DNA of 64,000 nt from an uncultured Peptococcaceae bacterium (GTDB lineage: Bacteria > Bacillota > Dehalobacteriia > UBA7702), in assembly GCA_964637365.1 (NCBI GenBank), contig CAZWWH010000002.1, positions 11,528 through 75,527 of the forward strand. The letters run 5' to 3'. Every line of letters begins with the position of its first letter. Position 1 is the stretch's first letter. Both the position numbers and the translations under genes were made by a program. The notes beneath the pieces were generated by a model that made no database searches, was not told where the DNA came from, and was given only the letters and a program-made list of their open reading frames with translations. Below are positions 6,586 through 29,008 of this stretch, in pieces.

Positions 6586-6955
6586 ACGTATTTTCCAGAC
6601 TGCTTTGGAAATTTTATTGATATATTTTTCCATATTTCATTCATTTGGTTTCTTCCTGAGCACTCTCCAAATCTTACCTTGACCAAATAAGCTTCGATCT
6701 CTTTACCCTATGCTTTTCCCATATCTTATGATAAGCGCCATTGTCGTATTTTCTTGGAATATACGCAATACCTGCTCAGGATGAAATATGATAGGCGCAG
6801 CTTCCGTCCTTTCTGCGCTGCGCCCTCGGTGCTTCCCCGTGGCCAAAAGCCGCGGGGTATGCCCGGATAATTACAAAATGCTATTGTAATTGTACATTTT
6901 GAAATAAATAAGTTTTTGCCGGTAGAAATTAATGCCGGAAATGAAAGGAGATTTT

Positions 6956-8821: not shown

Positions 8822-9066
8822 TGGCAACTAAAAAAACTTTGTTCCCAAAGAGGAACAAAGCGCTTTTACAATGAAAAACACAAAACCTCTTACGCGGAAG
8901 TTCTTTGTAAATTCATAGGCTGAAATATCCTGACTTACCTTCTACGTTGATACCGCCTTCCCGCATGAACAGTGGCAAATGGTAACAACTCGGGTTTCAC
9001 AGTGGCGCGACCGTTGAGGATTTTCACCTCATTCCTTCTGCACCTATGATTTTTTGATTCAATTAC
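8822..9066 (-). promoter_or_regulatory. Cobalamin riboswitch (orphan; no downstream CDS) with intrinsic terminator
   Basis: Minus-strand core GGAATGAGGTGAAAATCCTCAACGGTCGCGCCACTGTGAAAC, GGGAAGGCGG, and AAGTCAGGATA B12-box-like segment. Terminator GCGCTTTGTTCC-tctttg-GGAACAAAG + T7 (plus 8822-8858). Confidence 0.6.
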
Positions 9067-12102: not shown

Positions 12103-12214
12103 TTTTTCTCCCTCTTTCAGTCTACCAACACTTGTTTGGCGCTGAATATGATCCTTTTGCGTAATTGTTTACGTGAGCGCTATAATTCTCGGCACGAATC
12201 ATGGAGCGCTTCCA

Positions 12215-12476
12215 TATAAATATAAAAGGGTATGGTAAAAAACCATACCCTTTCGCAATCGAATAGAATTCCAGTGATTCCAAATTTGAATACCTAAATT
12301 TTACAAATCTAGCAAATTCGAATCAAAGATACACCAGATTAACCTTTCTTCAGAAGGCATGGTAAGGTCAACCAAATGTTTTCTGGCTCATGCTAAAACG
12401 CAATCACAGTGGCCGGACCGCTGAGGAATCGCACCTCATTACCATTTTGATTACCTGTTACAATATCAAATTATCT
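12215..12476 (-). promoter_or_regulatory. Cobalamin riboswitch with intrinsic terminator (controls the 956-aa lipoprotein gene)
   Basis: Minus-strand core GGTAATGAGGTGCGATTCCTCAGCGGTCCGGCCACTGTGATTGCG. B12-box-like GAGCCAGAAAAC. Terminator AAGGGTATGGT-ttttt-ACCATACCCTT + TTTTAT (plus 12221-12260). Confidence 0.65.
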
Positions 12477-12482
12477 TAAAAT

Positions 12483-12511
12483 ATTATAATAATACTTGTA
12501 TAAAAAGTCAA
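12483..12511 (-). promoter_or_regulatory. Sigma70 promoter (TTGACT-17-TATAAT) for riboswitch c
   Basis: Near-consensus hexamers with a 17-nt spacer on the minus strand. Confidence 0.5.
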
Positions 12512-12604: not shown

Positions 12605-13351
12605 TTAAAGAGTATCTTCCATCCAACTCCCGCCTGGCAGATCTCTGCCTAAATCACAGGTATAATTCCATTCAATCACGTCGCCGGCCTGGACTTGATA
12701 ACGGCTGCAGCCATAATTGGGATACCAACTATTAACACAATACATCCAACCGCTCAAATCGCCACAATCAAATTCATATAAATTATTGATGCCTTCGATA
12801 TATGTGGATCCATACATTGGCGTCCAACTATATTCCATATGGATTTTATTATTCTTAGTTTCGCGAAGAAGGATATCAAAGACAGATTCTCCTTCATAGA
12901 ATGTTACGGTTCTGCGAGAAAGAATTACGCCATCGGAGGGGACAAGGCCTTTTTTGTTAGGGTCTAAATCCTCCATGTTGTCAAGAATGGTGGAGCATTT
13001 AATTGATAATGTACACTTAAGGGATTTCGATTTATCGATTTTTTGGTTTTCAGTATCAACAGGTTTGGGCTTTCCTTCAGGAATCGGGTCCGTGTTGTAT
13101 TTGTCCTTCTGGGAATCAGCATCATAGTTGGTGCTGCTTTCAGCCTTTGAGTATTTGTCATAATCGGTGCTGCTTTCATCAACGTCATCGACGTCAATAT
13201 AGCCATCATCATCTGCTTCTGGCTGGGTTTCTGTTGCCGCAACTTCCTTTTCATTTTTGTCTGCGGATTTATCATCTCCGCAAGCGGTGAGCATTAATCC
13301 CAAACTCAGCATCATAATGAGCAGTAGCATGAATATACTTTTTCGCTTCAT
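12605..13351 (-). CDS. Acidic lipoprotein with C-terminal DUF4430 (transcobalamin-like beta) domain
   Basis: Lipobox LMLTACGDD. Long D/E/S-rich low-complexity linker. C-terminal DUF4430-type motif GDLSGWMYCVNSWYPNYGCSRYQVQAGDVIEWNYTCDLGRDLPG. RBS AAAGGAGGAG before the ATG at 13351. Confidence 0.65.
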   Translation of the reverse strand: MKRKSIFMLLLIMMLSLGLMLTACGDDKSADKNEKEVAATETQPEADDDGYIDVDDVDESSTDYDKYSKAESSTNYDADSQKDKYNTDPIPEGKPKPVDTENQKIDKSKSLKCTLSIKCSTILDNMEDLDPNKKGLVPSDGVILSRRTVTFYEGESVFDILLRETKNNKIHMEYSWTPMYGSTYIEGINNLYEFDCGDLSGWMYCVNSWYPNYGCSRYQVQAGDVIEWNYTCDLGRDLPGGSWMEDTL

Positions 13352-13889
13352 TTTCTGACTCCTCCTTTTATTTTTGCCGTTTCTTATAAAAAAACACAGT
13401 CCTTTCGGTATCTGTGCCAAATGGTCACAGGCACAGAGTAATCACATTTGACATAAAATCAAATGTTTGATATCACCTTGTGCCGATCAGTGACGTCCGT
13501 ATTTCTTTATGATTTAATTTTAACCATTCAGGTCAAAAATGTCAATGGCGAGTGATTGCTATCTCGTAGAAAATTAGCTTTGGGTGATAACAAATTGGAA
13601 TCACCCGCGCGTTGACAAAAAACGGAAATATGCTATTCTTGTCTCATTGAAAGGGACGAACGTATATATTTAAGGTGCCATTATTGTTTCATACTGTGAT
13701 AATGCCGATATCTCAGTATGAAATGGCGCCGAATGATATTTAATAAGGAGGGTCGAGGTAATTTATTGATTTCTTTTAATTGGCGCGCCGAGATTAAGGA
13801 AGTCGTTGCCACATGGATTTATGAGATGTGGCGAGTTTTGTGTTTAGCAGTAAAAGCACCGGCTATGATATTAAGAAAGGTATTATATT

Positions 13890-15722: not shown

Positions 15723-16910
15723 TTATGGATCCATCATACCGTATTTTTTTTTGACACGGTCTAACTTTTCTATCATTGGTTTTGAGAGAATCCAAAGAAA
15801 GAAAAAGGTGGCGACACCATGAACTGCATCAACGGGAATACCTGAAAGATATATGGCCAATGCCCCAGTTTTTTCCGTATTTGTTGTTAGAACTGTCCAT
15901 GTGTTTAATAGCAGCCCATAAATTACTTGTGCGCAGAAATAACCGAAAAAGCAAAGTGGAAGCCGTTTCTTAGAAAGCCAGCCTTTTTTGAATAACACCC
16001 CGGCCAAAAAGCCAATGATACCAAAGGCAAACATTTGCCACGGCGTCCAAGGGCCTTGACCAAAGAAAAAGTTCGAAACAAAAGCCGTCATCGCACCGCA
16101 GAGAAATCCCGCCTCAGCACCCAAACAAACACCGGAAATGGCAACAATTGCCCAAATTGGTTTTACATAGGGAAACATAAAGAAAGCTGCCCGTCCTAAG
16201 ATGGCGATTCCCACCATAACAGCGATGACTACCAGCTCTCTAGCTTCAGGCTTGCGCTGTTCAAAGATCATGAAGAAAGGGATCATCGTTTCAATGATAA
16301 TCATCAAACTGATAAAGTAGTATTGACGGTCATTCATAAAGAGGATGCCAAAAGCAATGGTAGCGGGGATAACCACTAGAATAAGGAGTGCAGCCATAGC
16401 CAAACGCTTCTTAACCCGGCGTATTAGAAGCACCATGAAAGCTACCAATAACGCTACGACCATAGCGATACACCCCTGTCCCATGACAAAGGTTGCTTTT
16501 GGATCTACCTGAGTTTTTATGACATGGGAAACATAAAAGTATGTGATAAAAACGAATACTACAGCTAAAATGGAACTGAAAAAGGTCCAGATGGTATTAT
16601 CACTATTTTTTGTAGCTTTGTTCTTGTTAAAAAGCATGGCCAGGCCAAAGGCCATGGTAATGGTGGTGGCCAATCCCATAATTCTAATGACTGAGATAAG
16701 GGATTTCGCTGTTTCCGGAATTGCTTTTGCAATATCGGATTTATAGAACTTAGTTATAAAATTATAGAGACTGAAGGTAATGGTCTGGTTATCCGCCGTT
16801 ACAGTAATAAAGGGCATTGCTACGCAGACCAGAGCCACGATCAAGGCTGTGCGGGCGATTTCCTTTATGGTATGATTTTCATTTATTTTGTCTGTAAGTT
16901 CTGCTTGCAT
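15723..16910 (-). CDS. ECF-transporter S-component-like polytopic membrane protein, paralog 2 (~11 TM)
   Basis: About 11 predicted TM helices. First 295 codons are nucleotide-identical to the upstream paralog. C-terminal ~100 aa diverge. Last gene of the riboswitch-controlled ECF operon. Confidence 0.55.
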   Translation of the reverse strand: MQAELTDKINENHTIKEIARTALIVALVCVAMPFITVTADNQTITFSLYNFITKFYKSDIAKAIPETAKSLISVIRIMGLATTITMAFGLAMLFNKNKATKNSDNTIWTFFSSILAVVFVFITYFYVSHVIKTQVDPKATFVMGQGCIAMVVALLVAFMVLLIRRVKKRLAMAALLILVVIPATIAFGILFMNDRQYYFISLMIIIETMIPFFMIFEQRKPEARELVVIAVMVGIAILGRAAFFMFPYVKPIWAIVAISGVCLGAEAGFLCGAMTAFVSNFFFGQGPWTPWQMFAFGIIGFLAGVLFKKGWLSKKRLPLCFFGYFCAQVIYGLLLNTWTVLTTNTEKTGALAIYLSGIPVDAVHGVATFFFLWILSKPMIEKLDRVKKKYGMMDP

Positions 16911-16930
16911 AATTCCACGACATCCTCATT
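16027..16930 (-). repeat. Copy B of a ~0.9 kb 100%-identical tandem direct repeat (gene-conversion tract)
   Basis: Identical to 17255-18158, including 20 nt upstream of the start codon. Confidence 0.8.
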
Positions 16931-16944
16931 TATATATTAAAATA

Positions 16945-18138
16945 TTATGATTCCATCATACCGTATTTCTTTTTGATGCGATCTAATTTTTCTATCATTG
17001 GTTTTGAGAGAACCCATAGAAAAAAGAAGGTGGAAATTCCGTAAACCATGTTGACGGGAAAGCCTGAAATATAATAGGCTAAGGGACCTGTGGTGCTAGT
17101 ATCAAAAGCTAAAGTGAAAATTGTACAGGTATCCATAATGAGCCCATAGACAATTAATGCACTAAAAAAGCCAAAGATGCAAAGTGGAAGCCGCTTCTTA
17201 GAAAGCCAGCCTTTTTTAAAGAATATGCCTGCCAAGAAGCCAATAAGCCCTAATGCAAACATTTGCCACGGCGTCCAAGGGCCTTGACCAAAGAAAAAGT
17301 TCGAAACAAAAGCCGTCATCGCACCGCAGAGAAATCCCGCCTCAGCACCCAAACAAACACCGGAAATGGCAACAATTGCCCAAATTGGTTTTACATAGGG
17401 AAACATAAAGAAAGCTGCCCGTCCTAAGATGGCGATTCCCACCATAACAGCGATGACTACCAGCTCTCTAGCTTCAGGCTTGCGCTGTTCAAAGATCATG
17501 AAGAAAGGGATCATCGTTTCAATGATAATCATCAAACTGATAAAGTAGTATTGACGGTCATTCATAAAGAGGATGCCAAAAGCAATGGTAGCGGGGATAA
17601 CCACTAGAATAAGGAGTGCAGCCATAGCCAAACGCTTCTTAACCCGGCGTATTAGAAGCACCATGAAAGCTACCAATAACGCTACGACCATAGCGATACA
17701 CCCCTGTCCCATGACAAAGGTTGCTTTTGGATCTACCTGAGTTTTTATGACATGGGAAACATAAAAGTATGTGATAAAAACGAATACTACAGCTAAAATG
17801 GAACTGAAAAAGGTCCAGATGGTATTATCACTATTTTTTGTAGCTTTGTTCTTGTTAAAAAGCATGGCCAGGCCAAAGGCCATGGTAATGGTGGTGGCCA
17901 ATCCCATAATTCTAATGACTGAGATAAGGGATTTCGCTGTTTCCGGAATTGCTTTTGCAATATCGGATTTATAGAACTTAGTTATAAAATTATAGAGACT
18001 GAAGGTAATGGTCTGGTTATCCGCCGTTACAGTAATAAAGGGCATTGCTACGCAGACCAGAGCCACGATCAAGGCTGTGCGGGCGATTTCCTTTATGGTA
18101 TGATTTTCATTTATTTTGTCTGTAAATTCTGCTTGCAT
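16945..18138 (-). CDS. ECF-transporter S-component-like polytopic membrane protein, paralog 1 (~11 TM)
   Basis: Same architecture as paralog 2. Start overlaps the ecfA 3' end by 28 nt, implying translational coupling. The C-terminal half (ARELVVIAVMVGIAILGRAAF..., GQGPWTPWQ) resembles ECF S-components. Confidence 0.55.
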   Translation of the reverse strand: MQAEFTDKINENHTIKEIARTALIVALVCVAMPFITVTADNQTITFSLYNFITKFYKSDIAKAIPETAKSLISVIRIMGLATTITMAFGLAMLFNKNKATKNSDNTIWTFFSSILAVVFVFITYFYVSHVIKTQVDPKATFVMGQGCIAMVVALLVAFMVLLIRRVKKRLAMAALLILVVIPATIAFGILFMNDRQYYFISLMIIIETMIPFFMIFEQRKPEARELVVIAVMVGIAILGRAAFFMFPYVKPIWAIVAISGVCLGAEAGFLCGAMTAFVSNFFFGQGPWTPWQMFALGLIGFLAGIFFKKGWLSKKRLPLCIFGFFSALIVYGLIMDTCTIFTLAFDTSTTGPLAYYISGFPVNMVYGISTFFFLWVLSKPMIEKLDRIKKKYGMMES

Positions 18139-18158
18139 AATTCCACGACATCCTCATT
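17255..18158 (-). repeat. Copy A of the ~0.9 kb 100%-identical tandem direct repeat
   Basis: Identical to 16027-16930. Its upstream 20 nt lie inside the ecfA coding 3' end. Confidence 0.8.
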
Positions 18159-19790
18159 ATTAACTGCATTGGTAAACACATGCCTCGATAGCCGGTTGGC
18201 AGATGTTGTATAAAAGCTATTGCCGGAGAAAAATCGGTTTGGCGTATCGGTGGTAACAATATCGCCATCAAAAAACATAGAGCAGCTGTCACCATAGCGG
18301 GCACAAAACTCAATGTCATGGGATACCATCACTACAGTGACTCCTTGATTGATAAGCTTTTTCAGAATCTCTGCAAGTTTGATTTTAAAGTAATTATCTA
18401 AGCCTTTGGTAGGTTCATCCAGTAATAGAATTTTGGGTTCCAGAAGGAGGATTTTTGCCAAAGCCGCCCTTTGTTGTTCCCCGCCGCTGATATCATATGG
18501 ATGCATTTGCAATAAATCAGTAATTTCCACCAACTCTGCGACGCGGCGAATTTGTTCTGCTTGTTCTTCCTTGGGAATTTTTTTATCTCTCATCATTTCC
18601 CAAAGATCCAGTTCCACTGTTTTTTTCACAAAAAGCGATTGAGGATCCTGAGGAAGCACAGCCAGGTTGCCTACAAATAATTCCTTGTTGGAATATTTTT
18701 TAATTTCTTTCCCATTGATAAGGACTTTTCCTCGATATGGACGCAAAATGCCGCTCATAATTTTCAAAGTAGTGCTTTTGCCTGTGCCATTGCCGCCAAC
18801 AATGCAAAACAAACTAGCCTTAGGAATATCAACGGAAACACCTTTGACGATATCCTTACCTTCCTTTTCGTAGCGGAACCAAACTTCCTTTAAGCGAATC
18901 ACAGGGTCGCTTTTCTTTAATTCTTGATGGTGGTCAATATTTCGATATTTGATTTCCTGATTCTGAAATAGCTCAGAAATCCAGTTGCGTCCCTCTCTTA
19001 CTGTCAATGGACATTCCAGCAGATTGTCAACAGCCGCATAAATCTGCATAGGGGAGGGCATGGCTACAAACATATCATTATCTTCTTGTTTCAATTTGGT
19101 GCCGACATTTCTTGGCGTGTCGTCCGCAATGACTTTGCCTTTTTCCATCACCACAACTCGGTCAGCATAAGGAACGACGTCTTCCAAACGGTGTTCAATG
19201 ATGATGACTGTAGTGCCCACTTCCTGGTTAATTTTCCGAATAGTTGCAAGAAAATCTGCGGCGGCGATGGGATCCAACTGGGAGGTTGGTTCATCTAGTA
19301 GAAGAACGGACGGCTGCATTGCCATAATGGATGCAAGATTCAGTAGTTGCTTCTGACCACCGGAGAGCTCTGTTACATTTTTCATGAACCATGTTTGGAT
19401 TCCAAAATAGCTTGCCATTTCTGCTACTCTCAGACGAATGGTGTGGTTGTCAGCCCCTAAGCTCTCCAATCCAAAAGCTAATTCATGCCAAACTTTATCG
19501 GTGACTATTTGGTTGTCAGGGTTTTGTAAAACAAAACCGATTTGGGAGGATTGTGCGCGAAAGCTAACATCCTCCAGAGATTTACCATAAAACAAAATTT
19601 CCCCGCTTCTAGTGCCGTGGGGGGCCATCACTGTTTTTAGCTGGCGCATCAGGGTACTTTTGCCGCACCCTGATTTTCCGCAAAGTGCAATAAATTCACC
19701 TTGCTCTACTTTTAAATTGACGTGGTCTAACGCTTTTTTTTCTTGTTCTGGATATGAAAACGTCAGATCTTTGATTTCATAACATGCCAT
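18111..19790 (-). CDS. ECF transporter fused duplicated ATPase (EcfA-EcfA')
   Basis: Two ABC ATPase domains: Walker A GKSGCGKST and GGNGTGKST, signatures LSGGQKQ and ISGGEQQR. RBS GGAGG. Confidence 0.8.
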   Translation of the reverse strand: MACYEIKDLTFSYPEQEKKALDHVNLKVEQGEFIALCGKSGCGKSTLMRQLKTVMAPHGTRSGEILFYGKSLEDVSFRAQSSQIGFVLQNPDNQIVTDKVWHELAFGLESLGADNHTIRLRVAEMASYFGIQTWFMKNVTELSGGQKQLLNLASIMAMQPSVLLLDEPTSQLDPIAAADFLATIRKINQEVGTTVIIIEHRLEDVVPYADRVVVMEKGKVIADDTPRNVGTKLKQEDNDMFVAMPSPMQIYAAVDNLLECPLTVREGRNWISELFQNQEIKYRNIDHHQELKKSDPVIRLKEVWFRYEKEGKDIVKGVSVDIPKASLFCIVGGNGTGKSTTLKIMSGILRPYRGKVLINGKEIKKYSNKELFVGNLAVLPQDPQSLFVKKTVELDLWEMMRDKKIPKEEQAEQIRRVAELVEITDLLQMHPYDISGGEQQRAALAKILLLEPKILLLDEPTKGLDNYFKIKLAEILKKLINQGVTVVMVSHDIEFCARYGDSCSMFFDGDIVTTDTPNRFFSGNSFYTTSANRLSRHVFTNAVNNEDVVELCKQNLQTK

Positions 19791-20653
19791 TTAACATCCT
19801 CCATTATATCAATCACCATGGGGAAAAAACATAGAAAACCGTAGGCAATGTAAACAAATATCGCCAGCGGAGTTGTTTCATTCATGATGAACAATGGGCT
19901 GTACGAGATAAAAATCTTGCCTATTGCCACCATAATAAAGGCGAATAGTGTCGGAATTATAATAGAGGCAATCACAATGTAATCTCTGGTATCGAAACGG
20001 AAAATAGAAAAGCTGGTGCGCCCCGGAAGTCCATAACCTCGGGAACGCATGGAATCCGCTGTTTCAATTCCATTTTCCAATGCCCATGTTGTCATAATTG
20101 ATATGATTTTCATACCGTTTTTGGCCTTTTCAACGAGATTTCCTTCAGTCGCATCCCGACCCATACATTTTTGCCCATTAGAAATTACTTTGATTTGTGC
20201 TTTGAATTTCGGAACAAAACGCAGCACCATGGATAGTACCAAAGAAATTGCGGGAATGACCCGGCCAAAAAGGTAGATAAATTTATCTGATGTCATCACT
20301 GCGTTATAGCAGGAAAACCACATGATAACTGTAACAAACATTGTGGCGGAGGCGAGCCCGTAAATCAATGATTCCAAAGTTAACGGATTACCGCTGGGAA
20401 AATAAGTGAGAATCGTAGCGCCCTGATGATTGAAAAGAGGATTCATGACGGCTGCGAGAATTAAAAGCGGAAGCATTGCGCAGAGATTAAACAGCAGCGC
20501 CTTTTTTCCATTTAGATAAATAGAATAGGTTATAGCAGCCACGAAGGATATTGCGAGAAAAACTGGCTGCATCATAAACATGGTAAATAAAATGACAATA
20601 AGAAAAAATGAAAAATTTATAATTGGATGAAGCGTAGAAAAAGCGTCTTTCAT
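19763..20653 (-). CDS. ECF transporter transmembrane (T) component, CbiQ/EcfT family
   Basis: Polytopic membrane protein with the EcfT signature region ...ADSMRSRGYGLPGRT... RBS GGAGG 8 nt upstream of ATG (MKDAFST...). Overlaps the ecfA start. Confidence 0.7.
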   Translation of the reverse strand: MKDAFSTLHPIINFSFFLIVILFTMFMMQPVFLAISFVAAITYSIYLNGKKALLFNLCAMLPLLILAAVMNPLFNHQGATILTYFPSGNPLTLESLIYGLASATMFVTVIMWFSCYNAVMTSDKFIYLFGRVIPAISLVLSMVLRFVPKFKAQIKVISNGQKCMGRDATEGNLVEKAKNGMKIISIMTTWALENGIETADSMRSRGYGLPGRTSFSIFRFDTRDYIVIASIIIPTLFAFIMVAIGKIFISYSPLFIMNETTPLAIFVYIAYGFLCFFPMVIDIMEDVKWHVMKSKI

Positions 20654-20699
20654 TGGGAAACCTCCAAACAGAATCCTTCCGCAACAAAAAACGCTTGCA

Positions 20700-20882
20700 A
20701 TAAAAAAATCCTGCACCGAGCGCAGGACAATAGGGTACCACTGAAACCTCAGTCACGGAAGGCTTGGTAAATACAGCAAACAAAGTTTTCTGGCTTCCGA
20801 GTTTATGGCTCGTATCACAGTGGCCGGACCGCCGGGGAGTCTAACCCCGTTACCTTATGTCATTGCATTTCGATATTTGCTT
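20700..20882 (-). promoter_or_regulatory. Cobalamin riboswitch with intrinsic terminator controlling the ECF operon
   Basis: Minus-strand core GGTAACGGGGTTAGACTCCCCGGCGGTCCGGCCACTGTGATACG. B12-box-like GAAGCCAGAAAAC. Terminator CCTGCGCTCGGTGCAGG + T7 immediately upstream of the ecfT RBS. Confidence 0.6.
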
Positions 20883-20889
20883 TTTAATA

Positions 20890-20918
20890 ATCATAACAAA
20901 TTTTTTCGCTTTGCACAA
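20890..20918 (-). promoter_or_regulatory. Putative sigma70 promoter with extended -10 (TTGTGC-17-TGtTATGAT)
   Basis: Minus-strand hexamers with 17-nt spacer and a TG extended -10 element. Confidence 0.35.
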
Positions 20919-21135
20919 GCCCTTTTCTTGAAAAACTCTTTTCCTTGCTGTTGCTAAATCTTTATCTCCATGAATCGTGAAAAACTATCATTTTTAGTAA
21001 GGGTTTTTAACGATCATGTAAAACTTGTTTAAATTCTATTTTGATAATTTTCGATTTGCTTTTTGTGGAAAATTTTGATATTCTATAAAAATAGATTTGC
21101 TTTTCTGCAATACAACTCATGAGGGAGGCCAAAGT

Positions 21136-22623
21136 ATGAATATTTTTAATGAGTTTTTTAATAATAATACCTTATATTTTGATGCCTTTGATAAATTGGT
21201 GGAAGCTGTCTATGTCTGCGATACAAAAGGAAATCTAGTTTACTTTAATAAAACTGCGGAAAAATTAGACCGCTATCTTCTCAAAGATGTTAAAGGTAGG
21301 TCTACTTTTGAGCTTTATGGACTCGATGAAAGCAGCAGTCCTATGCTAAAAGCATTAACTACGGAGCGCCCGATTTATAACGAGGAATTTAAGTATTATG
21401 TGAACGGTAAGGAAAATGTTCAGTTATGTAATGCCGGTCCGATTTATAACGAGGGAAAGCTGGCCGGTGCATATACTGTTCAGTGCGACTTGACTCCCAT
21501 TAAAGATTTTGTGGAAAAGAACATTGCCCTCCAACGGGAAATCATTCATCAGAAGAGCCTTATTACAGCCAATTATCCGGAGAAAGACATTTTCTCCGGT
21601 CTCATAGGGAGCAGCGAGGCCTTTGCCAGATGTAAGGAGTTGGCGCGTCGTGTGTCAAAAACCGATTCTTCTGTGATGCTGGTGGGCAGCACCGGCAGTG
21701 GGAAAGAAGTGTTTGCCCGTGCCATCCATGACTACAGCAACCGCAGGAAAGGACCGTTTCTTGCCTTAAACTGTGCCGCCATCCCAGAAAGTCTCATTGA
21801 AGGAATATTGTTTGGCACCACCAAAGGCGTTTATACCGGTGCTATGGAGAAGGAAGGTCTCCTGGCCCAAGCCGATGGAGGCACGATATTCCTGGATGAA
21901 ATCAACTCCATGCCTTTGGCGTCCCAAGCGAAGCTTTTGCGAGTGTTAGAGGAGAAGAAAATCATGAAGCTAGGCAGCGATAAGGAAAAGGAAATCAATG
22001 TCAAAATCATCAGCAGCACCAATGAGTTTCCCCGGGAAGCCATAAAAAACGGTCATATGCGTGAAGACCTGTTTTATCGTTTATCTGTGGTGCAGATAGT
22101 GATCCCGTCGCTGAGAGAGCGGAAGGATGATATACCGCAGCTGGTTCAACATTTCATAGATAAATACAACAGCCGTTTTCAAAAGAATATATTGGGAGTA
22201 GACGGTGAGGTAATGGAGTATTTTATGAAATTTCCCTGGCCCGGCAATGTACGGCAGTTGAAAGCCTGTGTAGAGTCGGCGATGAACTTTGCGAAGGATG
22301 GTGCCTGGATTACCTTTTCCGATTTGCCTCAGTATGTGTTTGAAAGCTCTGATATGCCAGAGGACCGCTACCGTCAATGGCAGCAAATACGGCATCAGAA
22401 GCCGCCAATTCCAACGCCCACAGCCATTGTGGAGACGAAGACACCGGAGAAAAAACAGGAATTGTCGGAAATGAATCTCATGGATTCCATTTGGATGGAG
22501 GAAAGGGATGAAATTATTCAGGCCTTGCGACAATCAAAAGGTAATATTACCAGGGCGGCAAAGGCATTGGGAATGAGCCGCCAATCATTGTCATATCGTT
22601 TGAAAAAATACCGTCTAAAATAA
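21136..22623 (+). CDS. Sigma54-dependent transcriptional activator (PAS sensor + AAA+ sigma54-interaction + Fis-type HTH)
   Basis: Walker A GSTGSGKE. GAFTGA-like motif GTTKGVYTGA. Arginine-finger region. C-terminal HTH. N-terminal PAS-like domain. RBS GAGGGAGG. Confidence 0.75.
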   Translation: MNIFNEFFNNNTLYFDAFDKLVEAVYVCDTKGNLVYFNKTAEKLDRYLLKDVKGRSTFELYGLDESSSPMLKALTTERPIYNEEFKYYVNGKENVQLCNAGPIYNEGKLAGAYTVQCDLTPIKDFVEKNIALQREIIHQKSLITANYPEKDIFSGLIGSSEAFARCKELARRVSKTDSSVMLVGSTGSGKEVFARAIHDYSNRRKGPFLALNCAAIPESLIEGILFGTTKGVYTGAMEKEGLLAQADGGTIFLDEINSMPLASQAKLLRVLEEKKIMKLGSDKEKEINVKIISSTNEFPREAIKNGHMREDLFYRLSVVQIVIPSLRERKDDIPQLVQHFIDKYNSRFQKNILGVDGEVMEYFMKFPWPGNVRQLKACVESAMNFAKDGAWITFSDLPQYVFESSDMPEDRYRQWQQIRHQKPPIPTPTAIVETKTPEKKQELSEMNLMDSIWMEERDEIIQALRQSKGNITRAAKALGMSRQSLSYRLKKYRLK

Positions 22624-22681
22624 TATTGAATCAAGTAATCGTTGTAATAGGGTTGATTATTTTTTCCAAAAGTAAATAATC

Positions 22682-22740
22682 GTATAAAACCGCAAAAAAT
22701 CGAAGCTGTTGTTGTAAGTCGATTTTTTGCGGTTTTATTT
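22682..22740. terminator. Long bidirectional terminator hairpin
   Basis: AAAACCGCAAAAAATCGA...TCGATTTTTTGCGGTTTTA: ~18-bp inverted repeat with T-tract. Confidence 0.6.
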
Positions 22741-22870
22741 AATATTATTCATTAATTGTCGCACAAGATTTTTGAGCCTAATCTTAAAAATTGTTACATA
22801 CGACTTTCTATGTGAAATAATGCCAGCATAAATGCTTCTTCCTAAATTTTTTATAAAAACTTTCTTTCTT

Positions 22871-22886
22871 TGGCACGGTATTTGCA
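22871..22886 (+). promoter_or_regulatory. Sigma54 (-24/-12) promoter TGGCACggtatTTGCA
   Basis: Perfect match to the TGGCAC-N5-TTGCA consensus, ~100 nt upstream of the MttB-family gene and downstream of the sigma54 activator gene. Confidence 0.65.
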
Positions 22887-22989
22887 GTTATAGAATAACA
22901 AAACAAGATAAAATCGATTTTATTAAGAATTACACATCAGAAACTACACAACAGAGAAAAATTGATGAATGATTTAGGAGGAAATGATT

Positions 22990-24399
22990 ATGGTGCCCAG
23001 ATATCAGCTTTTAACCCAGGAAGACATTGTTAAAATTCACGAAACTTCGATGAGAATTATGGAAAACGTAGGGATCGTTTTCAGCTATGAACCTGCCAGA
23101 GAAATGTTGAAAAAGCATGGCGCAAAAGAAGAAGGACATACCATGTTCTTCCCCCGCAGCATGGTTGAAGAAAAATTGAAAACTGTACCTTCCGCCTTTA
23201 CCCTTCATGGCAGAAATCCTGAAAAAACCATCGAAATTAATACAGTAGACACTTGCTATGCAGGACCTTATGGTTCTCCCTTTGTCACAGATATTGATAA
23301 CGGTCGCCGTTACGGTACTTTGGACGATTTTATCAGAATTGCTAAATTGCAAAATGACCTCTCCAATGTCGATATCATCAGCCATATCGGTTGTGAAGCC
23401 AACGATGTTGATGCCGATATTCGTCACAATGTGATGACCTATTGGAACTTAAAATTGAGCGACAAACCCCTTATGGGCAGCGTCCTTGGTTATGAAGCTG
23501 CAAAACAGTCCATTGAAATGGCAGGGATTGCCAATGGTGGTCTTGATGTTTTGAAAGAAAAAACCGTTATTGCTTCCATTCCCTGCACCTTGACTCCCTT
23601 GAGTTATGATGACAAGATGGCTGGGGCTATCATGGCATATGCTGAATACAATCAGGCTCAGTTGATTAATTCTCTCTCCATTTCCGGTGCAACCACTCCT
23701 GCAACCCTTGCCGGTCTCGTAGCTTTGCAGAATGCTGAAGTTCTTGCCGGTATCGTATTGGCACAGTGTGTAAATCCCGGTTGCCCCATTGTTTATTCTG
23801 CTTCCGGCTCTAATGCCGAAATGAGCACTGGCGCATTGTCCATCGGTTCCCCAGAAGATGCCATTGTTTCTTTAATGAATGGTCAGTTGGCTAAATTCTA
23901 TAATATTCCCTGCCGTATTAGTGGTACTCTCTCCGACTCCAAAGCCTGCGATGCCCAAGCCGGTTTTGAATCCGCTATCACCGGTTTGATGGCTCAGTTG
24001 GCTGGTGGTAACTTCATCCTCCATTCCATGGGGATCATTGAAGCGTATAACTGCACCTCTTATGAAAAAATGATTATTGACAATGAATTGCTTGGCTATT
24101 TTAAACACATTGGCAGAGGTGTAGAGGTTAACGACGAAACCTTGGCTTATGACGTGATTGCTGAAGTTGGTCCTCAGGGCGAATTCCTCTCCAATCCTCA
24201 TACCTTCATGCATTTCCGCAAAGAGTTCTATCGTCCTACCATTACCGACAGACTCAACTATGACCAGTGGAATGCCAATGGCGCTCTTACCATTGAACAG
24301 AGAGCCAACGCTAAATGGAAACAGATGCTGGAAGAATATGTTGAACCTACGCTTCCTGCTGATGTTGATGCTGAATTGAAAAAATACATTGAAAAATAA
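22990..24399 (+). CDS. MttB-superfamily (trimethylamine-type) corrinoid-dependent methyltransferase, non-pyrrolysine member (quaternary amine such as glycine betaine, proline betaine or carnitine)
   Basis: N-terminal region QLLTQEDIVKIHETSMRIMENVGIVF...FPRSMVEEKLKTVPS typical of COG5598/MttB-family TIM-barrel methyltransferases. No in-frame stop, so no Pyl codon. RBS AGGAGG. Confidence 0.7.
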   Translation: MVPRYQLLTQEDIVKIHETSMRIMENVGIVFSYEPAREMLKKHGAKEEGHTMFFPRSMVEEKLKTVPSAFTLHGRNPEKTIEINTVDTCYAGPYGSPFVTDIDNGRRYGTLDDFIRIAKLQNDLSNVDIISHIGCEANDVDADIRHNVMTYWNLKLSDKPLMGSVLGYEAAKQSIEMAGIANGGLDVLKEKTVIASIPCTLTPLSYDDKMAGAIMAYAEYNQAQLINSLSISGATTPATLAGLVALQNAEVLAGIVLAQCVNPGCPIVYSASGSNAEMSTGALSIGSPEDAIVSLMNGQLAKFYNIPCRISGTLSDSKACDAQAGFESAITGLMAQLAGGNFILHSMGIIEAYNCTSYEKMIIDNELLGYFKHIGRGVEVNDETLAYDVIAEVGPQGEFLSNPHTFMHFRKEFYRPTITDRLNYDQWNANGALTIEQRANAKWKQMLEEYVEPTLPADVDAELKKYIEK

Positions 24400-24511
24400 T
24401 CTTAGTTCAATATATGAAGTAAATAGGGAGGGGAATTATCTCCTCCCTAACTTTTCTCAATGAAGAAATATGTAATTAAAGTATGGGGTATACTTTGGAA
24501 AGGATTATAAA

Positions 24512-25777
24512 ATGAAAAATTTCGGTTTTAGAAAATTGATGATTTTCATCATTTTAAGTGCCACTGTGGCCATTGCCTATCAATTACCTTATCTTCGGTA
24601 CACCTTTTACGATCAAATGATGGCCGCCCTGAATCTCAATGATGTACAAATGGGTGTTTTAGCCTCTGCAGTCAGCATTGCTAGTACAATCAGTTATCCT
24701 ATCGGTGGTTTTCTTGCTAACCGTTTTTCCATGCGATCTCTGATTAATCTTACCTTGGCAGCGTTCGTTGTACTTACTGTCTGTTTCGCTTTTACTACAA
24801 ACTATGTATTCCTGATTGGGATCCATGTACTTTATGGCTTTTTTGGTATCGCTACTTTGTGGTCTGCTTACCTCGTTGGGATCCGTAACCTAGGTGATGA
24901 AAGCGTGCAGAGTAAGCTCTTTGGTTTCAGTGAAGCGACTCGTGGGATCCTTCAGACCTTGCTTGGCTTTGCTTTCCTCGGCATCATGGGGGCAGCAGCA
25001 GCTCCAGCTATGGGCTTTAAAACCATGCTGATTGTCGGTGCTGTCGTTACCGGTGTCTTCCTGGTGCTCGGCTTTATCTTCCTCCCCAAAAAGGAACAAG
25101 ATGACAACATGGAAGCTCAGACGGAATCAGAGAAAAAATATACCATCGTAGATGTATTGAAGAACCCTGGTGTTTGGATTACGATTATCATTTTGACTTG
25201 TGGCTATGCTTGCTGGTCTTTCGGGAATGGTTATTTAACAACCTATACTGTGCGTGTCGCAGGTCTTTCCGAAACTACTGCTTCTTTTTTAGGCATGATT
25301 CGCAGCTATGTTATCGTGTTTATCGCCGGTTTCCTTGGCGGATGGGTACTTGATAAGTTTACCTATAAAGGGAAGGCTTTCCTCATCCTCTTTATTTTGA
25401 GCGCTGGTTGTTTTGCAGCTGTGATGTTTAGCAGTAAAGCTTTGGCTGTTTGCGTAGGTCTCACTCTCTTTGTGGCTTTTATTGCCAACATCATGAAGTC
25501 CACCTATTGGAGCATTATGGGACAAGCCGGCATTCCTTCCGGAATGACTGCTTTGGCTACCGGTTTTATTTCCTTAATTATTTTCCTTCCTGATGCGATT
25601 TTGCCTACATTCATTGGTACCTGGCTCAATAACGCGGAAGCGGCCGGTAATATTGCCGCCGGATTTGACCGGATCTTTATCATGCTGATTATATTTGCCG
25701 TTATCGGTATCCTTGGCAGCATTCTTCTGACTAGAAGAACAAAAAAAATTGACTCCAAAGGACAAATGGAGAAATAA
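24512..25777 (+). CDS. MFS transporter
   Basis: 12-TM major facilitator architecture, 421 aa. Confidence 0.6.
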   Translation: MKNFGFRKLMIFIILSATVAIAYQLPYLRYTFYDQMMAALNLNDVQMGVLASAVSIASTISYPIGGFLANRFSMRSLINLTLAAFVVLTVCFAFTTNYVFLIGIHVLYGFFGIATLWSAYLVGIRNLGDESVQSKLFGFSEATRGILQTLLGFAFLGIMGAAAAPAMGFKTMLIVGAVVTGVFLVLGFIFLPKKEQDDNMEAQTESEKKYTIVDVLKNPGVWITIIILTCGYACWSFGNGYLTTYTVRVAGLSETTASFLGMIRSYVIVFIAGFLGGWVLDKFTYKGKAFLILFILSAGCFAAVMFSSKALAVCVGLTLFVAFIANIMKSTYWSIMGQAGIPSGMTALATGFISLIIFLPDAILPTFIGTWLNNAEAAGNIAAGFDRIFIMLIIFAVIGILGSILLTRRTKKIDSKGQMEK

Positions 25778-26023
25778 TTGCTCTTTATCACGGTGATAAA
25801 ATACGGGCATATTTTTGTTAAATAAGCAAAGCTACCATAATCGATTCAGCACAACAAAGAATGCCTGAAACGTGTTGTGCTGTTCGATGAATGGTAGCTT
25901 TCTATTTTTCGGAACGTAGAGACAAAGGCGTAATGCTAATCCTAGATGTTGAATTATACTGCGCCCCTGTCTGTATGGTCTTCTCAGTTAAAACAAAAAT
26001 CATTTCAAAAGGAGCTGTTAAAT

Positions 26024-27532
26024 ATGAAAATATTGGGTAAAATTGATAAAACCATCTTTGGCACTTCTGTATTGATTTACGCTTTGATTTTTTTATTTAT
26101 TCTAATTTCCCCTAAAATGGCTGAGGCTGTCGTCAACTCTGTTATGGATTTTACATTATCTGCCGTTGGTTGGGTATATATTTTGGCTTATGCCTTCATC
26201 ACAGTTTCATTTCTTATTATTGGACTGAGCAAATACGGCAAATTGAAACTGGGAAAGCAGGAATCCAAACCCGAATATTCCTTTTTTAGTTGGATGGGAA
26301 TGCTTTTCGGCGCTGGGCTCGGGGTAGGACTTGTTTATTACGGAGTAACCGAACCAGTATCGCATTTTATGACAGCACCTTTTGCGGAAAGCGGTACAGC
26401 GGAAGCTGCCGCTGACGCTATGCGCACCACATTTTTTCATTGGAGCTTTCTGCCTTGGGCCAGTTATGGTATTGTAGGACTTTGTATCGGTTACTTCTCT
26501 CACCGCAAAGGATTACCGGGGCTTGTATCCTCTGCATTCCAACCAATGTTAGGGGAGAAAATCAGCAAAACGCCAGGGAAAATTATTGACGCTTTTTCCT
26601 TGATCGCTGTGATTTGTGGCGTTTCCATGTCCGTGGGCTTCGCAGCGACACAGTTAGCCAGCGGCCTCAGTATGCAGTATGGTCTGCCCAATAATTTTGT
26701 AACTGTGGCGATTATTGTTCTTACCATCGGTGTTTTGGCGACGGTATCCGCTATGAGTGGCGTTGCCAAAGGAGTCAAACTAATCAGTGATTCCAATATG
26801 TACATTGTGCTATTTTTTTTGGCTTTTACATTTATATTTGGTTCTACTGTTTTCCTGATTAATACCTTTTTTCAAAGCATGGGGAATATGGTTTTTAATT
26901 TACCGTGGCTCTTATTTTTTGCAGATAGCTTCGAAACCATATCCTCTCAAACAGGATTTGATTGGGTAGAAAGTTGGACAATTTTTTATTGGGCCTGGTG
27001 GGTGGCTTTTGCTCCTTTTGTAGGAGGCTTTCTTGCCCAAATTTCTAAAGGCCGCACCATCCGAGAATTCGTGTTTGCATGTCTTTTTGTACCCGGCGTG
27101 CTTTGCTGTATTTGGTTCACATTTTTTGGTGGTGAAGCCATCCATATGACACTCTTTGAAGGCTCCCAGGTTTGTGCTGCGGCTGCAGCGGATCTTAATA
27201 ATTCCCTTTTCGTATTTCTAAAGGAATTGCCAGTTTCTGGGTTTACCATTCCTTTGGCAATCCTTTTAATCATTACATTAATTGTAACTTCGGTGAATTC
27301 TGCCACTTGTGTTGCCGGCACTTTCAGTTCTGGTGGCGATTTTACACCATCTCTGGGACTCCGTGCCTTTTGGGGCGTCTTCATTGCCTTGAATTCCATT
27401 CTCTTTTTCTCCATCGGAGGCTTGGATACCTTGAAAAATACAGCCATTGTTTTCGCCTTCCCTTTTATTTTGATTATGGTTTTCATGGTGCTGAATCTTT
27501 TCAAAGACCTCAAAAACTGTGATGACGTCTGA
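26024..27532 (+). CDS. BCCT family (betaine/carnitine/choline) transporter
   Basis: BCCT-type polytopic protein with Trp-rich TM segments. RBS AAAGGAG before the ATG at 26024. Confidence 0.65.
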   Translation: MKILGKIDKTIFGTSVLIYALIFLFILISPKMAEAVVNSVMDFTLSAVGWVYILAYAFITVSFLIIGLSKYGKLKLGKQESKPEYSFFSWMGMLFGAGLGVGLVYYGVTEPVSHFMTAPFAESGTAEAAADAMRTTFFHWSFLPWASYGIVGLCIGYFSHRKGLPGLVSSAFQPMLGEKISKTPGKIIDAFSLIAVICGVSMSVGFAATQLASGLSMQYGLPNNFVTVAIIVLTIGVLATVSAMSGVAKGVKLISDSNMYIVLFFLAFTFIFGSTVFLINTFFQSMGNMVFNLPWLLFFADSFETISSQTGFDWVESWTIFYWAWWVAFAPFVGGFLAQISKGRTIREFVFACLFVPGVLCCIWFTFFGGEAIHMTLFEGSQVCAAAAADLNNSLFVFLKELPVSGFTIPLAILLIITLIVTSVNSATCVAGTFSSGGDFTPSLGLRAFWGVFIALNSILFFSIGGLDTLKNTAIVFAFPFILIMVFMVLNLFKDLKNCDDV

Positions 27533-27833: not shown

Positions 27834-28436
27834 ATGGATGAACGCGGAAAAATGGGAATCGCTTTTGATAAGTATTTGGCGGATTTCTTAGCGGAAAATG
27901 GTAAAAAAATGGCAGAGCTTTCTGGTGGTCAATGGGAAGATCCATTGATTCGTCTTCCCTATTTAGGTGGTTCTATCACAATTAATCATAAGGATGGAAC
28001 CATTACTCCGGAACCCAAAGAATTATTGGAAAAGATTTTAATTTATAAGTATCTTTTGGAAGTTCAGGGCATTGAGGGGCCTGGTGATGATTTTATCGCT
28101 TTTATTCAGTTACCCTGTGGCTCCCATCACCAAAAGTTTTTTAAATTAGAGGTACTTGCCCCTCTTCAGAACCGTTTTGGCGAGGATTTGCTCGCGTTTA
28201 CCAAAGCGGCGAAAGCTTTTGGTGGTTTCCCCGTAAAGGGTGGCGATTTGGCTTATCAGATTCCTTATTTTCCAAAAATTCAGGTTCGTATACAGATCTG
28301 GGAAGGTGATGATGAGTTTCCGGCTCAGAGCGCATTTTTGTTTGACAATAAATGTCACTTCCATATGGATACCGACGGCTTAAATGAACTAGCCAATCAC
28401 ATGACGGCATTGCTTTTGGAAGAGGCGGATCGATGA
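27834..28436 (+). CDS. Hypothetical protein (200 aa)
   Basis: ORF with good coding periodicity. No family recognised. Confidence 0.4.
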   Translation: MDERGKMGIAFDKYLADFLAENGKKMAELSGGQWEDPLIRLPYLGGSITINHKDGTITPEPKELLEKILIYKYLLEVQGIEGPGDDFIAFIQLPCGSHHQKFFKLEVLAPLQNRFGEDLLAFTKAAKAFGGFPVKGGDLAYQIPYFPKIQVRIQIWEGDDEFPAQSAFLFDNKCHFHMDTDGLNELANHMTALLLEEADR

Positions 28437-29008
28437 GTCATTTTTTTGCCTATATCAGTAAAATGAAGTGGATCAAGCGATGGGGGCTCATGAAAAACAC
28501 TGCCGAGGAAAATATCATGGAGCACAGCTGGCAAGTCGCTACTATCGCCCATGGTTTGGCCACAATCAAAAATGATGTGTTCGGCGCCAATGTTGATGCC
28601 GAACATATTGCTATGCTGGCGTTATATCATGAAACCGGTGAAGTGATTACCGGTGATTTTGCTACGCCGGTAAAATATTTTAATCCCGAAATCAAAAATG
28701 CCATTGGTGATTTGGAACATCTGGCAAAGGAAAAAATTTTTTCCATGCTCCCAACAGAGCTGCAAAAAAGCTATCAACCATTAATTTTTCCCGATGAAAA
28801 AGGGGAAGAATATATCATTGTCAAAGCTGCTGATAAAATTTGCGCTTATTTAAAGTGTATAGAGGAATTGAAGTGGGGCAATCGAGAATTCTCCAAAGCG
28901 GAAAAAACCATTCGCAGTGATTTGGAAAAAATGGATCGAGAAGAAGTGCAGTATTTCTTGGAACATTTTTTGGAAAGCTTCTCTTTGACATTGGATGAAT
29001 TAAACTAG
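28433..29008 (+). CDS. HD-domain 5'-deoxynucleotidase (YfbR-like)
   Basis: HD motif region (ALYHETGEVITGDFATP, H...D residues), ~190 aa YfbR-like size. Confidence 0.6.
   Translation: MSHFFAYISKMKWIKRWGLMKNTAEENIMEHSWQVATIAHGLATIKNDVFGANVDAEHIAMLALYHETGEVITGDFATPVKYFNPEIKNAIGDLEHLAKEKIFSMLPTELQKSYQPLIFPDEKGEEYIIVKAADKICAYLKCIEELKWGNREFSKAEKTIRSDLEKMDREEVQYFLEHFLESFSLTLDELN

Follow-up and report, generated by a model that had tools for sequence, protein, structure and literature searches.

Methyltransferases of the MttB superfamily decide whether dietary quaternary amines are turned into harmless demethylated products or are left for trimethylamine-forming routes in the gut. To our knowledge, most members have no assigned substrate, and Eubacterium limosum alone encodes 42 MttB-superfamily paralogues. 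The E. limosum enzymes MtcB and MtyB each adjoin a transporter of the major facilitator superfamily (MFS) and a RocR-like regulator, and the orphan first methyltransferases (MT1) of this organism share the remotely encoded partners MtqC, MtqA and RamQ (PMC8604678). In the betaine cluster of Sporomusa sphaeroides KIAC, SigL promoters (TGGCA-N6-TTGC) and sigma-54 activators have been mapped by differential RNA sequencing (dRNA-seq) (PMC12456013), and MttB (COG5598) is enriched among the predicted sigma-54 targets in Clostridia (PMC12316311), so that the regulatory idea is already known. The cassette type itself is known as well, namely an orphan MttB of the non-pyrrolysine (non-Pyl) kind that is accompanied by transporters and controlled by sigma-54 and an enhancer-binding protein (EBP). 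Here, we describe such a locus in an uncultured Peptococcaceae bacterium, in a stretch of 64,000 nucleotides (contig CAZWWH010000002.1 of assembly GCA_964637365.1, positions 11,528 to 75,527), which is referred to as the window and within which all positions are numbered. On balance, the locus is probably a substrate-inducible catabolic cassette, with 4-hydroxyproline betaine (betonicine-type) or a related proline-derived betaine as the likeliest substrate. New here are the placement of its methyltransferase in an uncharacterised sister clade of the glycine betaine methyltransferase MtgB, a testable substrate prediction and a conserved transporter partner. The features of the cassette are the following:

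21136-22623, plus strand: EBP gene, encoding a sigma-54 enhancer-binding protein with a PAS sensor, an AAA+ sigma-54 interaction domain and a C-terminal Fis-type helix-turn-helix (HTH)
22684-22738, plus strand: hairpin after the EBP gene, a long A/U-rich stem followed by a U-run (-26.2 kcal/mol), likely terminator
22871-22886, plus strand: sigma-54 promoter of the -24/-12 type, TGGCAC-GGTAT-TTGCA (TGGCACGGTATTTGCA)
22990-24399, plus strand: mttB (MT1), encoding a non-Pyl MttB-superfamily methyltransferase of 469 aa (PF06253, 495 bits)
24424-24449, plus strand: GC-rich hairpin after mttB (-20.8 kcal/mol) with a weak U-tail
24512-25777, plus strand: MFS transporter gene (Pfam MFS_1), conserved partner of this MttB clade
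25825-25903, plus strand: hairpin and U-run after the MFS gene (-36.6 kcal/mol), likely intrinsic terminator
25946-27532, plus strand: gene for a transporter of the betaine/choline/carnitine type (BCCT; PF02028, 527 bits)

The open reading frame (ORF) of mttB spans 22984-24399, and its better start is the ATG at 22990, 8 nt after a GGAGG. The product matches PF06253 nearly from end to end (profile positions 28-494 of 500), and the frame contains no in-frame stop or UAG and aligns over its whole length with the non-Pyl MtgB. Since the frame has no in-frame stop, the enzyme is of the non-Pyl type, as an earlier note, made from the letters of this DNA, had proposed. The closest characterised relative is MtgB (structures 9YCE/2QNE; E=3e-138, 464 bits), compared with E=4e-49 for the Methanosarcina barkeri MttB (7XCL), and none of the NCBIfam equivalogs matches the window protein above its cut-off. 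At 63-91% identity, the protein matches over 100 database clusters, whose sources are Bacillota, Negativicutes and Synergistota of gut, digester and sediment, but its identity to MtgB is only 46-50%. The closest species-level genome is that of Candidatus Cryptoclostridium obscurum (Clostridia incertae sedis), with an MttB of 91% identity. A search with MtgB as the query returned a separate set at 65% identity or more, which includes the Acetobacterium and Sporomusa enzymes, and every sequence to which NCBI gives the name 'glycine betaine--corrinoid protein methyltransferase' has an identity of about 65% or higher to the Desulfitobacterium hafniense MtgB, DSY3156. In a neighbour-joining tree, the window clade is sister to MtgB and a proteobacterial (Arenicellales) group.

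The two clades also differ at 23 alignment positions that are at least 90% conserved within each of them, some of which lie near the binding residues (PGY versus GPY before Y97, G314 versus S after R312, and N202/S203 versus C/T). The window MttB carries all 23 clade-type residues, as do the D. hafniense and Sporomusa members and most of the gut members that were checked; the exceptions are the Lactonifactor protein P0123, with four departures, and three other proteins, with one each. By these comparisons, the window MttB is outside the MtgB clade, in a tight sister clade. The phylogeny against MtgB that had been suggested earlier thus does not place the protein in the MtgB clade. D. hafniense (DSY3648 versus DSY3156), Sporomusa and Formimonas each encode a member of the window clade together with a true MtgB; a literature search on DSY3648 found nothing. 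An equation of the Formimonas protein P0089 with one of the glycine-betaine-induced MtgB proteins of that organism was rejected, as its gene lies with an EBP gene and one BCCT gene, and the induced genes are MtgA, MtgB, OpuD and OpuD.

The glycine betaine site of MtgB consists of Y97, R312, H348 and F356, as shown by mutagenesis and crystallography. The carboxylate is bound by the arginine and the histidine, R312 forming a pair with the substrate's acidic group, and the quaternary nitrogen is bound by the two aromatic residues; an F356Y variant is kinetically like the wild type, and the authors of that study regard the four-residue motif as necessary but not sufficient for specificity (PMC13080624). 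At these positions the window MttB has Y, R, H and Y. The arginine is invariant (116/116 sequences of the window clade and 87/87 of the MtgB clade), and the Y/R/H/Y motif also occurs in the remoter paralogues L015_par470 and L016_par473 and is therefore not discriminating. MtcB, MtpB, MthB and MtyB are reported to keep the arginine and not the aromatic pair (PMC13080624), and it is by this published statement, not by direct sequence comparison, that these four enzymes are set apart from the window MttB. They are too remote to be among the top 120 database hits.

For the comparison of gene neighbourhoods, 98 related loci were gathered (numbered with the prefix L), 36 of which carry an MttB at least 56% identical to the window protein. 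In three of these, L007 and L008 from human-gut Lachnospiraceae and L017 from Lactonifactor longoviformis, the clade MttB gene is clustered with an MFS gene and three catabolic genes, which encode a glycyl radical enzyme, its activase and a homologue of pyrroline-5-carboxylate (P5C) reductase (P5CR). The glycyl radical enzyme of L007 is essentially identical to HpyG (PDB 8ID1; 1584 bits over 792 residues) and reaches only 504 bits with HypD. HpyG and the D-isomer enzyme HpzG (8IOF) are dehydratases of N-methyl-4-hydroxyproline, and both give N-methyl-P5C (PMC13450708). The MttB proteins of the three HpyG-linked clusters are 59-66% identical to that of the window, and their MFS proteins 60% (L007, L017) and 52% (L008). 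The MttB protein P0080 shares all 23 clade-diagnostic residues with the window protein, whereas P0123 is the one that departs at four, and the window subclade is set apart from the HpyG-linked one by only nine mild substitutions. The Sporomusa cluster with a window-type MttB has the same type of reductase (59-70% identity). A tblastn search of the window with the HpyG, activase and P5CR sequences of L007 gave no hits.

This Sporomusa locus (L015) is syntenic gene for gene with the run KIAC18_001784-001794 in the transcriptome table of strain KIAC. The order in both is catalase/peroxidase, sigma-54 regulator, corrinoid protein, MttB, corrinoid protein, pterin-binding second methyltransferase (MTII) and MttB, followed by two BCCTs, a chemoreceptor and a prohibitin. 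The normalised counts of the window-type gene KIAC18_001788 are 1.2 on CO2, 6.6 on formate, 6.6 on methanol and 11.5 on 43 mM betaine; the regulator beside it has about 200 counts, and the truly betaine-induced MttB-family genes have tens of thousands. Glycine betaine is thus disfavoured as the substrate, because the clade is separate, its Sporomusa member is uninduced and gene neighbourhoods in the clade are linked to hydroxyproline. The simplest reading is that the clade MttB demethylates 4-hydroxyproline betaine to N-methyl-4-hydroxyproline, which in some organisms is processed further by HpyG and the reductase. More specifically, but only tentatively, we suggest that the whole clade consists of 4-hydroxyproline-betaine methyltransferases feeding HpyG or HpzG, with the MFS protein as a dedicated transporter and the PAS-domain EBP, or a TetR-like repressor in lineages without sigma-54, as the specific sensor. 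Substrate and inducer are thus predicted from clade membership and gene neighbourhood. Among the four substrates that had been offered earlier, glycine betaine is disfavoured, the enzymes for carnitine and gamma-butyrobetaine do not have the aromatic pair of this clade, and proline betaine is possible only as a relative of the favoured hydroxyproline-derived betaine.

Some of the related loci show further arrangements of MttB-family genes. Loci L038-L099 comprise about 60 mostly marine and sediment homologues that are 46-55% identical to both MtgB and the window clade; in these metagenome sequences the gene is rarely near partner genes, and they may form a third uncharacterised group. On the minus strand of L002 (4504-5976), gene calling splits an MttB-family gene into two pieces of 327 and 143 aa, which is consistent with an in-frame UAG and suggests a pyrrolysine-type trimethylamine methyltransferase beside a window-type cassette in one bacterium. 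In Candidatus Formimonas warabiya (L013, 1-6097), a second sigma-54 activator precedes genes for a heterotetramer like sarcosine/proline dehydrogenase (Fer2_4, Pyr_redox_2, Fer4, SO_alpha_A3 and DAO domains), followed by a distant MttB paralogue of 482 aa, an arrangement that links oxidative and corrinoid-dependent demethylation.

Upstream of mttB, the EBP gene lies in an ORF at 21097-22623 with a mechanical TTG start at 21097; the likely real start is the ATG at 21136, which has GAGGGAGG just upstream and gives a product of 495 aa. Pfam finds PAS_4, Sigma54_activat (207 bits), AAA_lid_14 and HTH_8, in accordance with the earlier description as a PAS-sigma-54 activator divergent to an operon for an energy-coupling factor (ECF) transporter, and that operon is indeed divergent. 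The Walker A motif is GSTGSGK. The loop that contacts sigma-54 reads GVYTGA instead of the canonical GAFTGA, and GVYTGA or GIYTGA is kept across the orthologous EBPs of nine loci, a conservation that argues for a functional loop. Orthologous EBPs (48-75% identity) adjoin clade MttB genes in 14 loci.

The promoter, 104 nt before the mttB ATG, is perfect, as was first claimed. Its sequence is the sole match to TGGCAC-N5-TTGCA in the window, even with one mismatch permitted, and the number of perfect matches expected there by chance is 0.04. When the upstream regions are aligned, conservation is confined to two blocks, namely the promoter (TTTTGGCA..G...TTGCA.TA) and the ribosome-binding site. 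An element TGGCA[CT]-N5-TTGC is present within 400 nt upstream of the clade MttB gene in 15 loci, namely the 14 with an orthologous EBP and the short contig L037, which carries the promoter only; apart from L037, it was not found in any locus without the EBP. In 13 of the EBP-less loci the EBP is replaced by a TetR-like protein, apparently an alternative regulator of the same cassette to judge from its position. The gene for this protein of about 212 aa follows the clade MttB gene, and the protein has an N-terminal HTH and no Pfam match; its copies, for example in L007 (9516-10154), L018 (11660-12295) and L019 (11561-12202) and further in L008, L021, L024, L025, L033, L035, L036 and L040, are 41-60% identical to each other. 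Because activator, promoter and MttB gene stay together across 15 related loci, the predicted sigma-54 dependence of mttB is well supported, and we infer that it also holds in vivo.

The site of activator binding (upstream activating sequence, UAS) is less evident. The inverted repeat ACATA-N8-TATGT at 22796-22813, which the earlier note had put forward as a UAS, was rejected, as it is no better than chance and not conserved in relatives: inverted repeats with 5-nt arms number nine in the 247-nt spacer against 6.2 expected, and 99% of the spacer shuffles contain at least one. A better candidate, and the best that the sequences offer, is the inverted pair CGCAAAA (22691-22697) and TTTTGCG (22725-22731), which lies inside the EBP terminator hairpin and in the window doubles as the stem of that terminator. 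The pair recurs in four of eight close loci (p<0.001 each by shuffling); its distance upstream of the -24 element is 110-225 nt in the window, L001, L005 and L006, and it has a counterpart of its type in at most 2.7% of genomic 300-nt windows.

Downstream of mttB, both transporters expected from the earlier reading were found by Pfam. The MFS protein is identical to MEE0777084.1, and its identity to relatives tracks that of MttB (80-86% in L001, L003, L005, L006 and L020; 60% in L007, L017 and L019); in L007 and L017 its gene lies within the HpyG operon. No informative solved or curated relatives of the MFS protein were found. It is a probable importer of the betaine substrate or an exchanger of substrate and product, the direction of transport being predicted from this context. 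The best NCBIfam match of the BCCT is the glycine-betaine BCCT model, with 524 bits under a cut-off of 650, and its nearest PDB matches are trimethylamine, choline and BetP transporters with similar scores. The BCCT is only 32-67% identical to the BCCTs of the relatives, and these are not always adjacent to the cassette. The genes that follow it, for a DUF3786 protein and a YfbR-like HD-domain protein (27834-29008, plus strand), were rejected as members of the cassette, since they are adjacent in 0/98 other loci and are thus probably unrelated.

The hairpin at 24424-24449 has analogues just after the MttB stop codon in L001, L002, L003 and L006 and probably serves either as a partial terminator or as a stem stabilising the mRNA, by which the ratio of enzyme to transporter is set. 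Since a strong terminator-like hairpin follows the MFS gene, the BCCT gene may be a separate transcription unit. A second sigma-54 promoter was sought before the MFS and BCCT genes and not found. The sigma-54 unit can confidently be said to include mttB and probably also includes the MFS gene. In the predicted 5' untranslated region of mttB there is, in addition, a palindrome, ATAAAATCGATTTTAT (22908-22923, plus strand), which is kept in L003, the relative of 91% identity; at this position, small hairpins unrelated to it are present in other relatives.

The partners that a corrinoid methyltransferase requires appear to be encoded elsewhere. A Pfam scan that covered nearly every window ORF of 120 aa or longer, apart from a few that are mainly embedded or overlapping, found no B12-binding corrinoid protein, no pterin-binding MTII and no RamA-type activase, so that the absence of a corrinoid protein and a methyl-corrinoid:tetrahydrofolate methyltransferase that had been noted before held among the ORFs scanned. 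Other members of the clade have such partners at hand. The order at DSY3648 of D. hafniense is activator, MttB, corrinoid protein, MTII, hydantoinase-like protein and BCCT, and the clade MttB gene is also directly beside those for a corrinoid protein and MTII in S. sphaeroides, L023 and L027-L031. About 10 kb downstream in the relative of 91% identity, there is a convergent cluster of genes for a corrinoid protein, two paralogues of MttB, a hydantoinase-like protein and a BCCT; the matching position of the window holds the BCCT, DUF3786 and YfbR-like genes. The proposal that the partners of the window MttB are remote or shared is reasonable, with the E. limosum enzymes as a direct precedent (PMC8604678), and by this analogy they would lie elsewhere in this genome.

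From these elements the following mechanism can be proposed. The PAS-domain EBP would sense a betaine-type compound or a signal derived from it and bind upstream of the -24/-12 promoter, with the CGCAAAA/TTTTGCG repeats as the probable site; at the expense of ATP, it would open the complex of sigma-54 RNA polymerase at TGGCAC-N5-TTGCA. Transcription would then cover mttB and, through a leaky hairpin, the MFS gene, and the BCCT gene would be reached by read-through or be transcribed separately. MttB would take one N-methyl group from a quaternary amine with a carboxylate and pass it to a corrinoid protein in the Co(I) state, the gene for which would lie outside the window, and a methyl-corrinoid:tetrahydrofolate methyltransferase and an ATP-dependent reductive activase, likewise encoded elsewhere, would complete the system.

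Several observations weigh against a cassette for hydroxyproline-derived betaines and have to be set beside the competing substrates. No HpyG-type enzyme or P5C reductase is encoded near the window cassette or near its closest relatives (77-91% identity), and because of this the hydroxyproline-betaine inference rests on members that are 59-66% identical; MtcB and MtyB, at 53% identity, show that specificity can shift (PMC8604678). The association with HpyG is seen in three of the 36 clade loci and that with a P5C reductase in five, many of the contigs being short. The MttB of the HpyG clusters could also act after the dehydratase, for example on N-methylproline. No open-access literature linking MttB to hydroxyproline betaine or glycyl radical enzymes was found, the primary HpyG paper being outside this scope. 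These points lend some weight to another proline-family nitrogen compound or alpha-amino-acid betaine as the substrate, such as proline betaine (stachydrine), N-methylproline downstream of HpyG, alanine betaine or trigonelline, with the HpyG linkage reflecting a neighbouring pathway step. The Sporomusa and L016 clusters, which have a P5C-reductase homologue, no glycyl radical enzyme and a second MttB paralogue that hints at multi-step demethylation, fit such a substrate, as does the motif, which suits any betaine with a carboxylate one carbon from the nitrogen. We nevertheless consider this unlikely, since the proline betaine enzyme MtpB is reported without the aromatic pair and so falls outside the clade (PMC13080624), the characterised non-Pyl MttB enzymes all use quaternary amines and not tertiary ones such as N-methylproline, and the window and HpyG-linked subclades differ so little. 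The other competing substrate is glycine betaine, in which case the window MttB would be a second glycine betaine:corrinoid methyltransferase, an isoenzyme of MtgB, and the BCCT would import glycine betaine. All four glycine-betaine-contacting residues of MtgB are kept, with a Y for F356 that the kinetics of the F356Y variant would allow; no characterised relative is closer than MtgB, the BCCT has its best NCBIfam match with the glycine betaine model, and the clade fragment P0120 was named 'Glycine betaine methyltransferase' by one database submitter. In Sporomusa, moreover, the expression argument bears on induction and not on the specificity of the enzyme. Set against this are the identity of 46-50% to MtgB compared with at least 65% within the MtgB clade proper, the 23 positions that are fixed differently, several of them next to binding residues, the presence of both types in D. 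hafniense, Sporomusa and Formimonas, the lack of induction of the Sporomusa clade member on 43 mM betaine, a motif that the MtgB study itself regards as not sufficient (PMC13080624), and a BCCT that scores below the curated cut-off, the conserved transporter partner being the MFS protein. A role as a glycine betaine isoenzyme is thus improbable, and a betaine derived from hydroxyproline or proline is still the reading that we prefer.

For the regulation and the completeness of the system, too, there are contrary points: no rpoN gene was found in the window, the sigma-54 loop of the EBP departs from GAFTGA, and no corrinoid protein, MTII or activase is visible. The absence of rpoN from the window and the loop would also fit a situation in which TGGCAC-N5-TTGCA is not a working promoter or the EBP controls something else, so that mttB is transcribed with sigma-70, and a weak sigma-70-like site overlaps 22793-22821. 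Such sites are not above chance in the region, however (15 observed and 18.7 expected), while a perfect -24/-12 element would hardly be expected at random, is the conserved promoter block of the intergenic alignment, accompanies an orthologous EBP in 14 loci (plus the promoter-only contig) and is missing from the loci that have a TetR-like regulator instead of the EBP. With the SigL promoters mapped by dRNA-seq in the Sporomusa betaine clusters as a further argument (PMC12456013), transcription of mttB from a sigma-70 promoter is very improbable, and sigma-54 control remains the preferred reading.

The cassette borders on a region with features of B12-dependent regulation, for which three candidates for cobalamin riboswitches (RF00174) were obtained:

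8901-9062, minus strand: cobalamin riboswitch, above the Rfam threshold (71 bits)
12356-12486, minus strand: cobalamin riboswitch, above the Rfam threshold
20763-20894, minus strand: third cobalamin riboswitch candidate, below the threshold (27 bits against a cut-off of 31.5 bits)

The third candidate was missed by the default Rfam threshold scan, but covers the full model (positions 1-189) with E=2.5e-4 in a 2.6 kb search, and a terminator hairpin (20728-20708) comes after it, immediately before the ECF operon (15723-20716). The neighbouring ECF transporter is therefore, to judge from its leader sequence, probably controlled by a B12 riboswitch. The earlier note had seen the juxtaposition of the cassette with a corrinoid-scavenging system as functionally coherent; the B12 regulation of the latter is probable, but ECF T or S components are beside the cassette in 0/98 other loci, and a conserved link between cassette and ECF/B12 cluster was rejected, the adjacency being found in this genome only.

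The ECF operon itself contains tandem paralogous S-components of 395 and 397 aa (15723-18138, minus strand), both with an N-terminal extension of about 220 aa before the S-component domain (residues about 224-372), followed by a fused double ATPase (559 aa) and, at the expected place of the T-component, a 317-aa protein without a Pfam match. In the region 9232-12486 (minus strand), a 956-aa protein without a Pfam match is encoded directly downstream of the riboswitch at 12356-12486, and a DUF4430 protein (12605-13420) lies just upstream, which looks like a B12-regulated surface or uptake module. The riboswitch at 8901-9062 has no ORF of more than 54 aa downstream on its strand and points into the 3' end of a plus-strand gene for a DUF4430/Big_2/SLH surface protein (6932-8554); it may drive an antisense RNA or be an orphan leader.

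The 15-locus comparison adds support for sigma-54 control of corrinoid methyltransferase genes in Clostridia, which has so far been mapped experimentally in Sporomusa only, and two kinds of regulator alternate in the clade, a sigma-54 EBP in some loci and a TetR-like protein in others. If true, a role in the use of hydroxyproline betaine would give an entire MttB subfamily a substrate, and an anaerobic pathway for hydroxyproline betaines from plants and the diet would be complete.

Compared with the known systems, the cassette resembles most of all the MtcB (L-carnitine) and MtyB (gamma-butyrobetaine) loci of E. limosum, in which a non-Pyl MT1 is likewise found beside an MFS transporter and a RocR-like regulator (a sigma-54 EBP with a Fis-type HTH) and the shared MtqC, MtqA and RamQ are encoded remotely (PMC8604678), just as the window has no partner genes. 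The regulator of the window is co-oriented and upstream, whereas theirs is divergent, and the window adds a BCCT. The window MttB keeps the aromatic pair (Y97, F/Y356), which MtcB and MtyB are reported not to have (PMC13080624), a distinction that is by description only; the window enzyme thus belongs to a different subfamily, with a shorter, alpha-carboxy betaine as the probable substrate. With D. hafniense MtgB (DSY3156; 2QNE, 9YCE) it has the TIM-barrel family and all four residues of substrate contact in common, but the two are 46-50% identical and belong to sister clades, and the window has no adjacent MtgC or MtgA; D. hafniense also has a paralogue of the window type, DSY3648, which is accompanied by an EBP, a corrinoid protein, an MTII and a BCCT of its own. 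In the SigL cluster of S. sphaeroides KIAC, sigma-54 promoters and activators drive betaine transporter and methyltransferase genes in a similar way (PMC12456013); that cluster spans 58 kb and is induced by glycine betaine, whereas the cluster that holds the window-type MttB (KIAC18_001784-001794) is silent on betaine. The HpyG/HpzG clusters of gut Clostridia, finally, contain orthologues of the window MttB (59-66% identity) and MFS protein (51-60%) in L007, L008 and L017, but differ in that they encode a glycyl radical dehydratase and a P5C reductase, both absent from the window, and have TetR-like or HTH/cupin regulators in place of the sigma-54 EBP.

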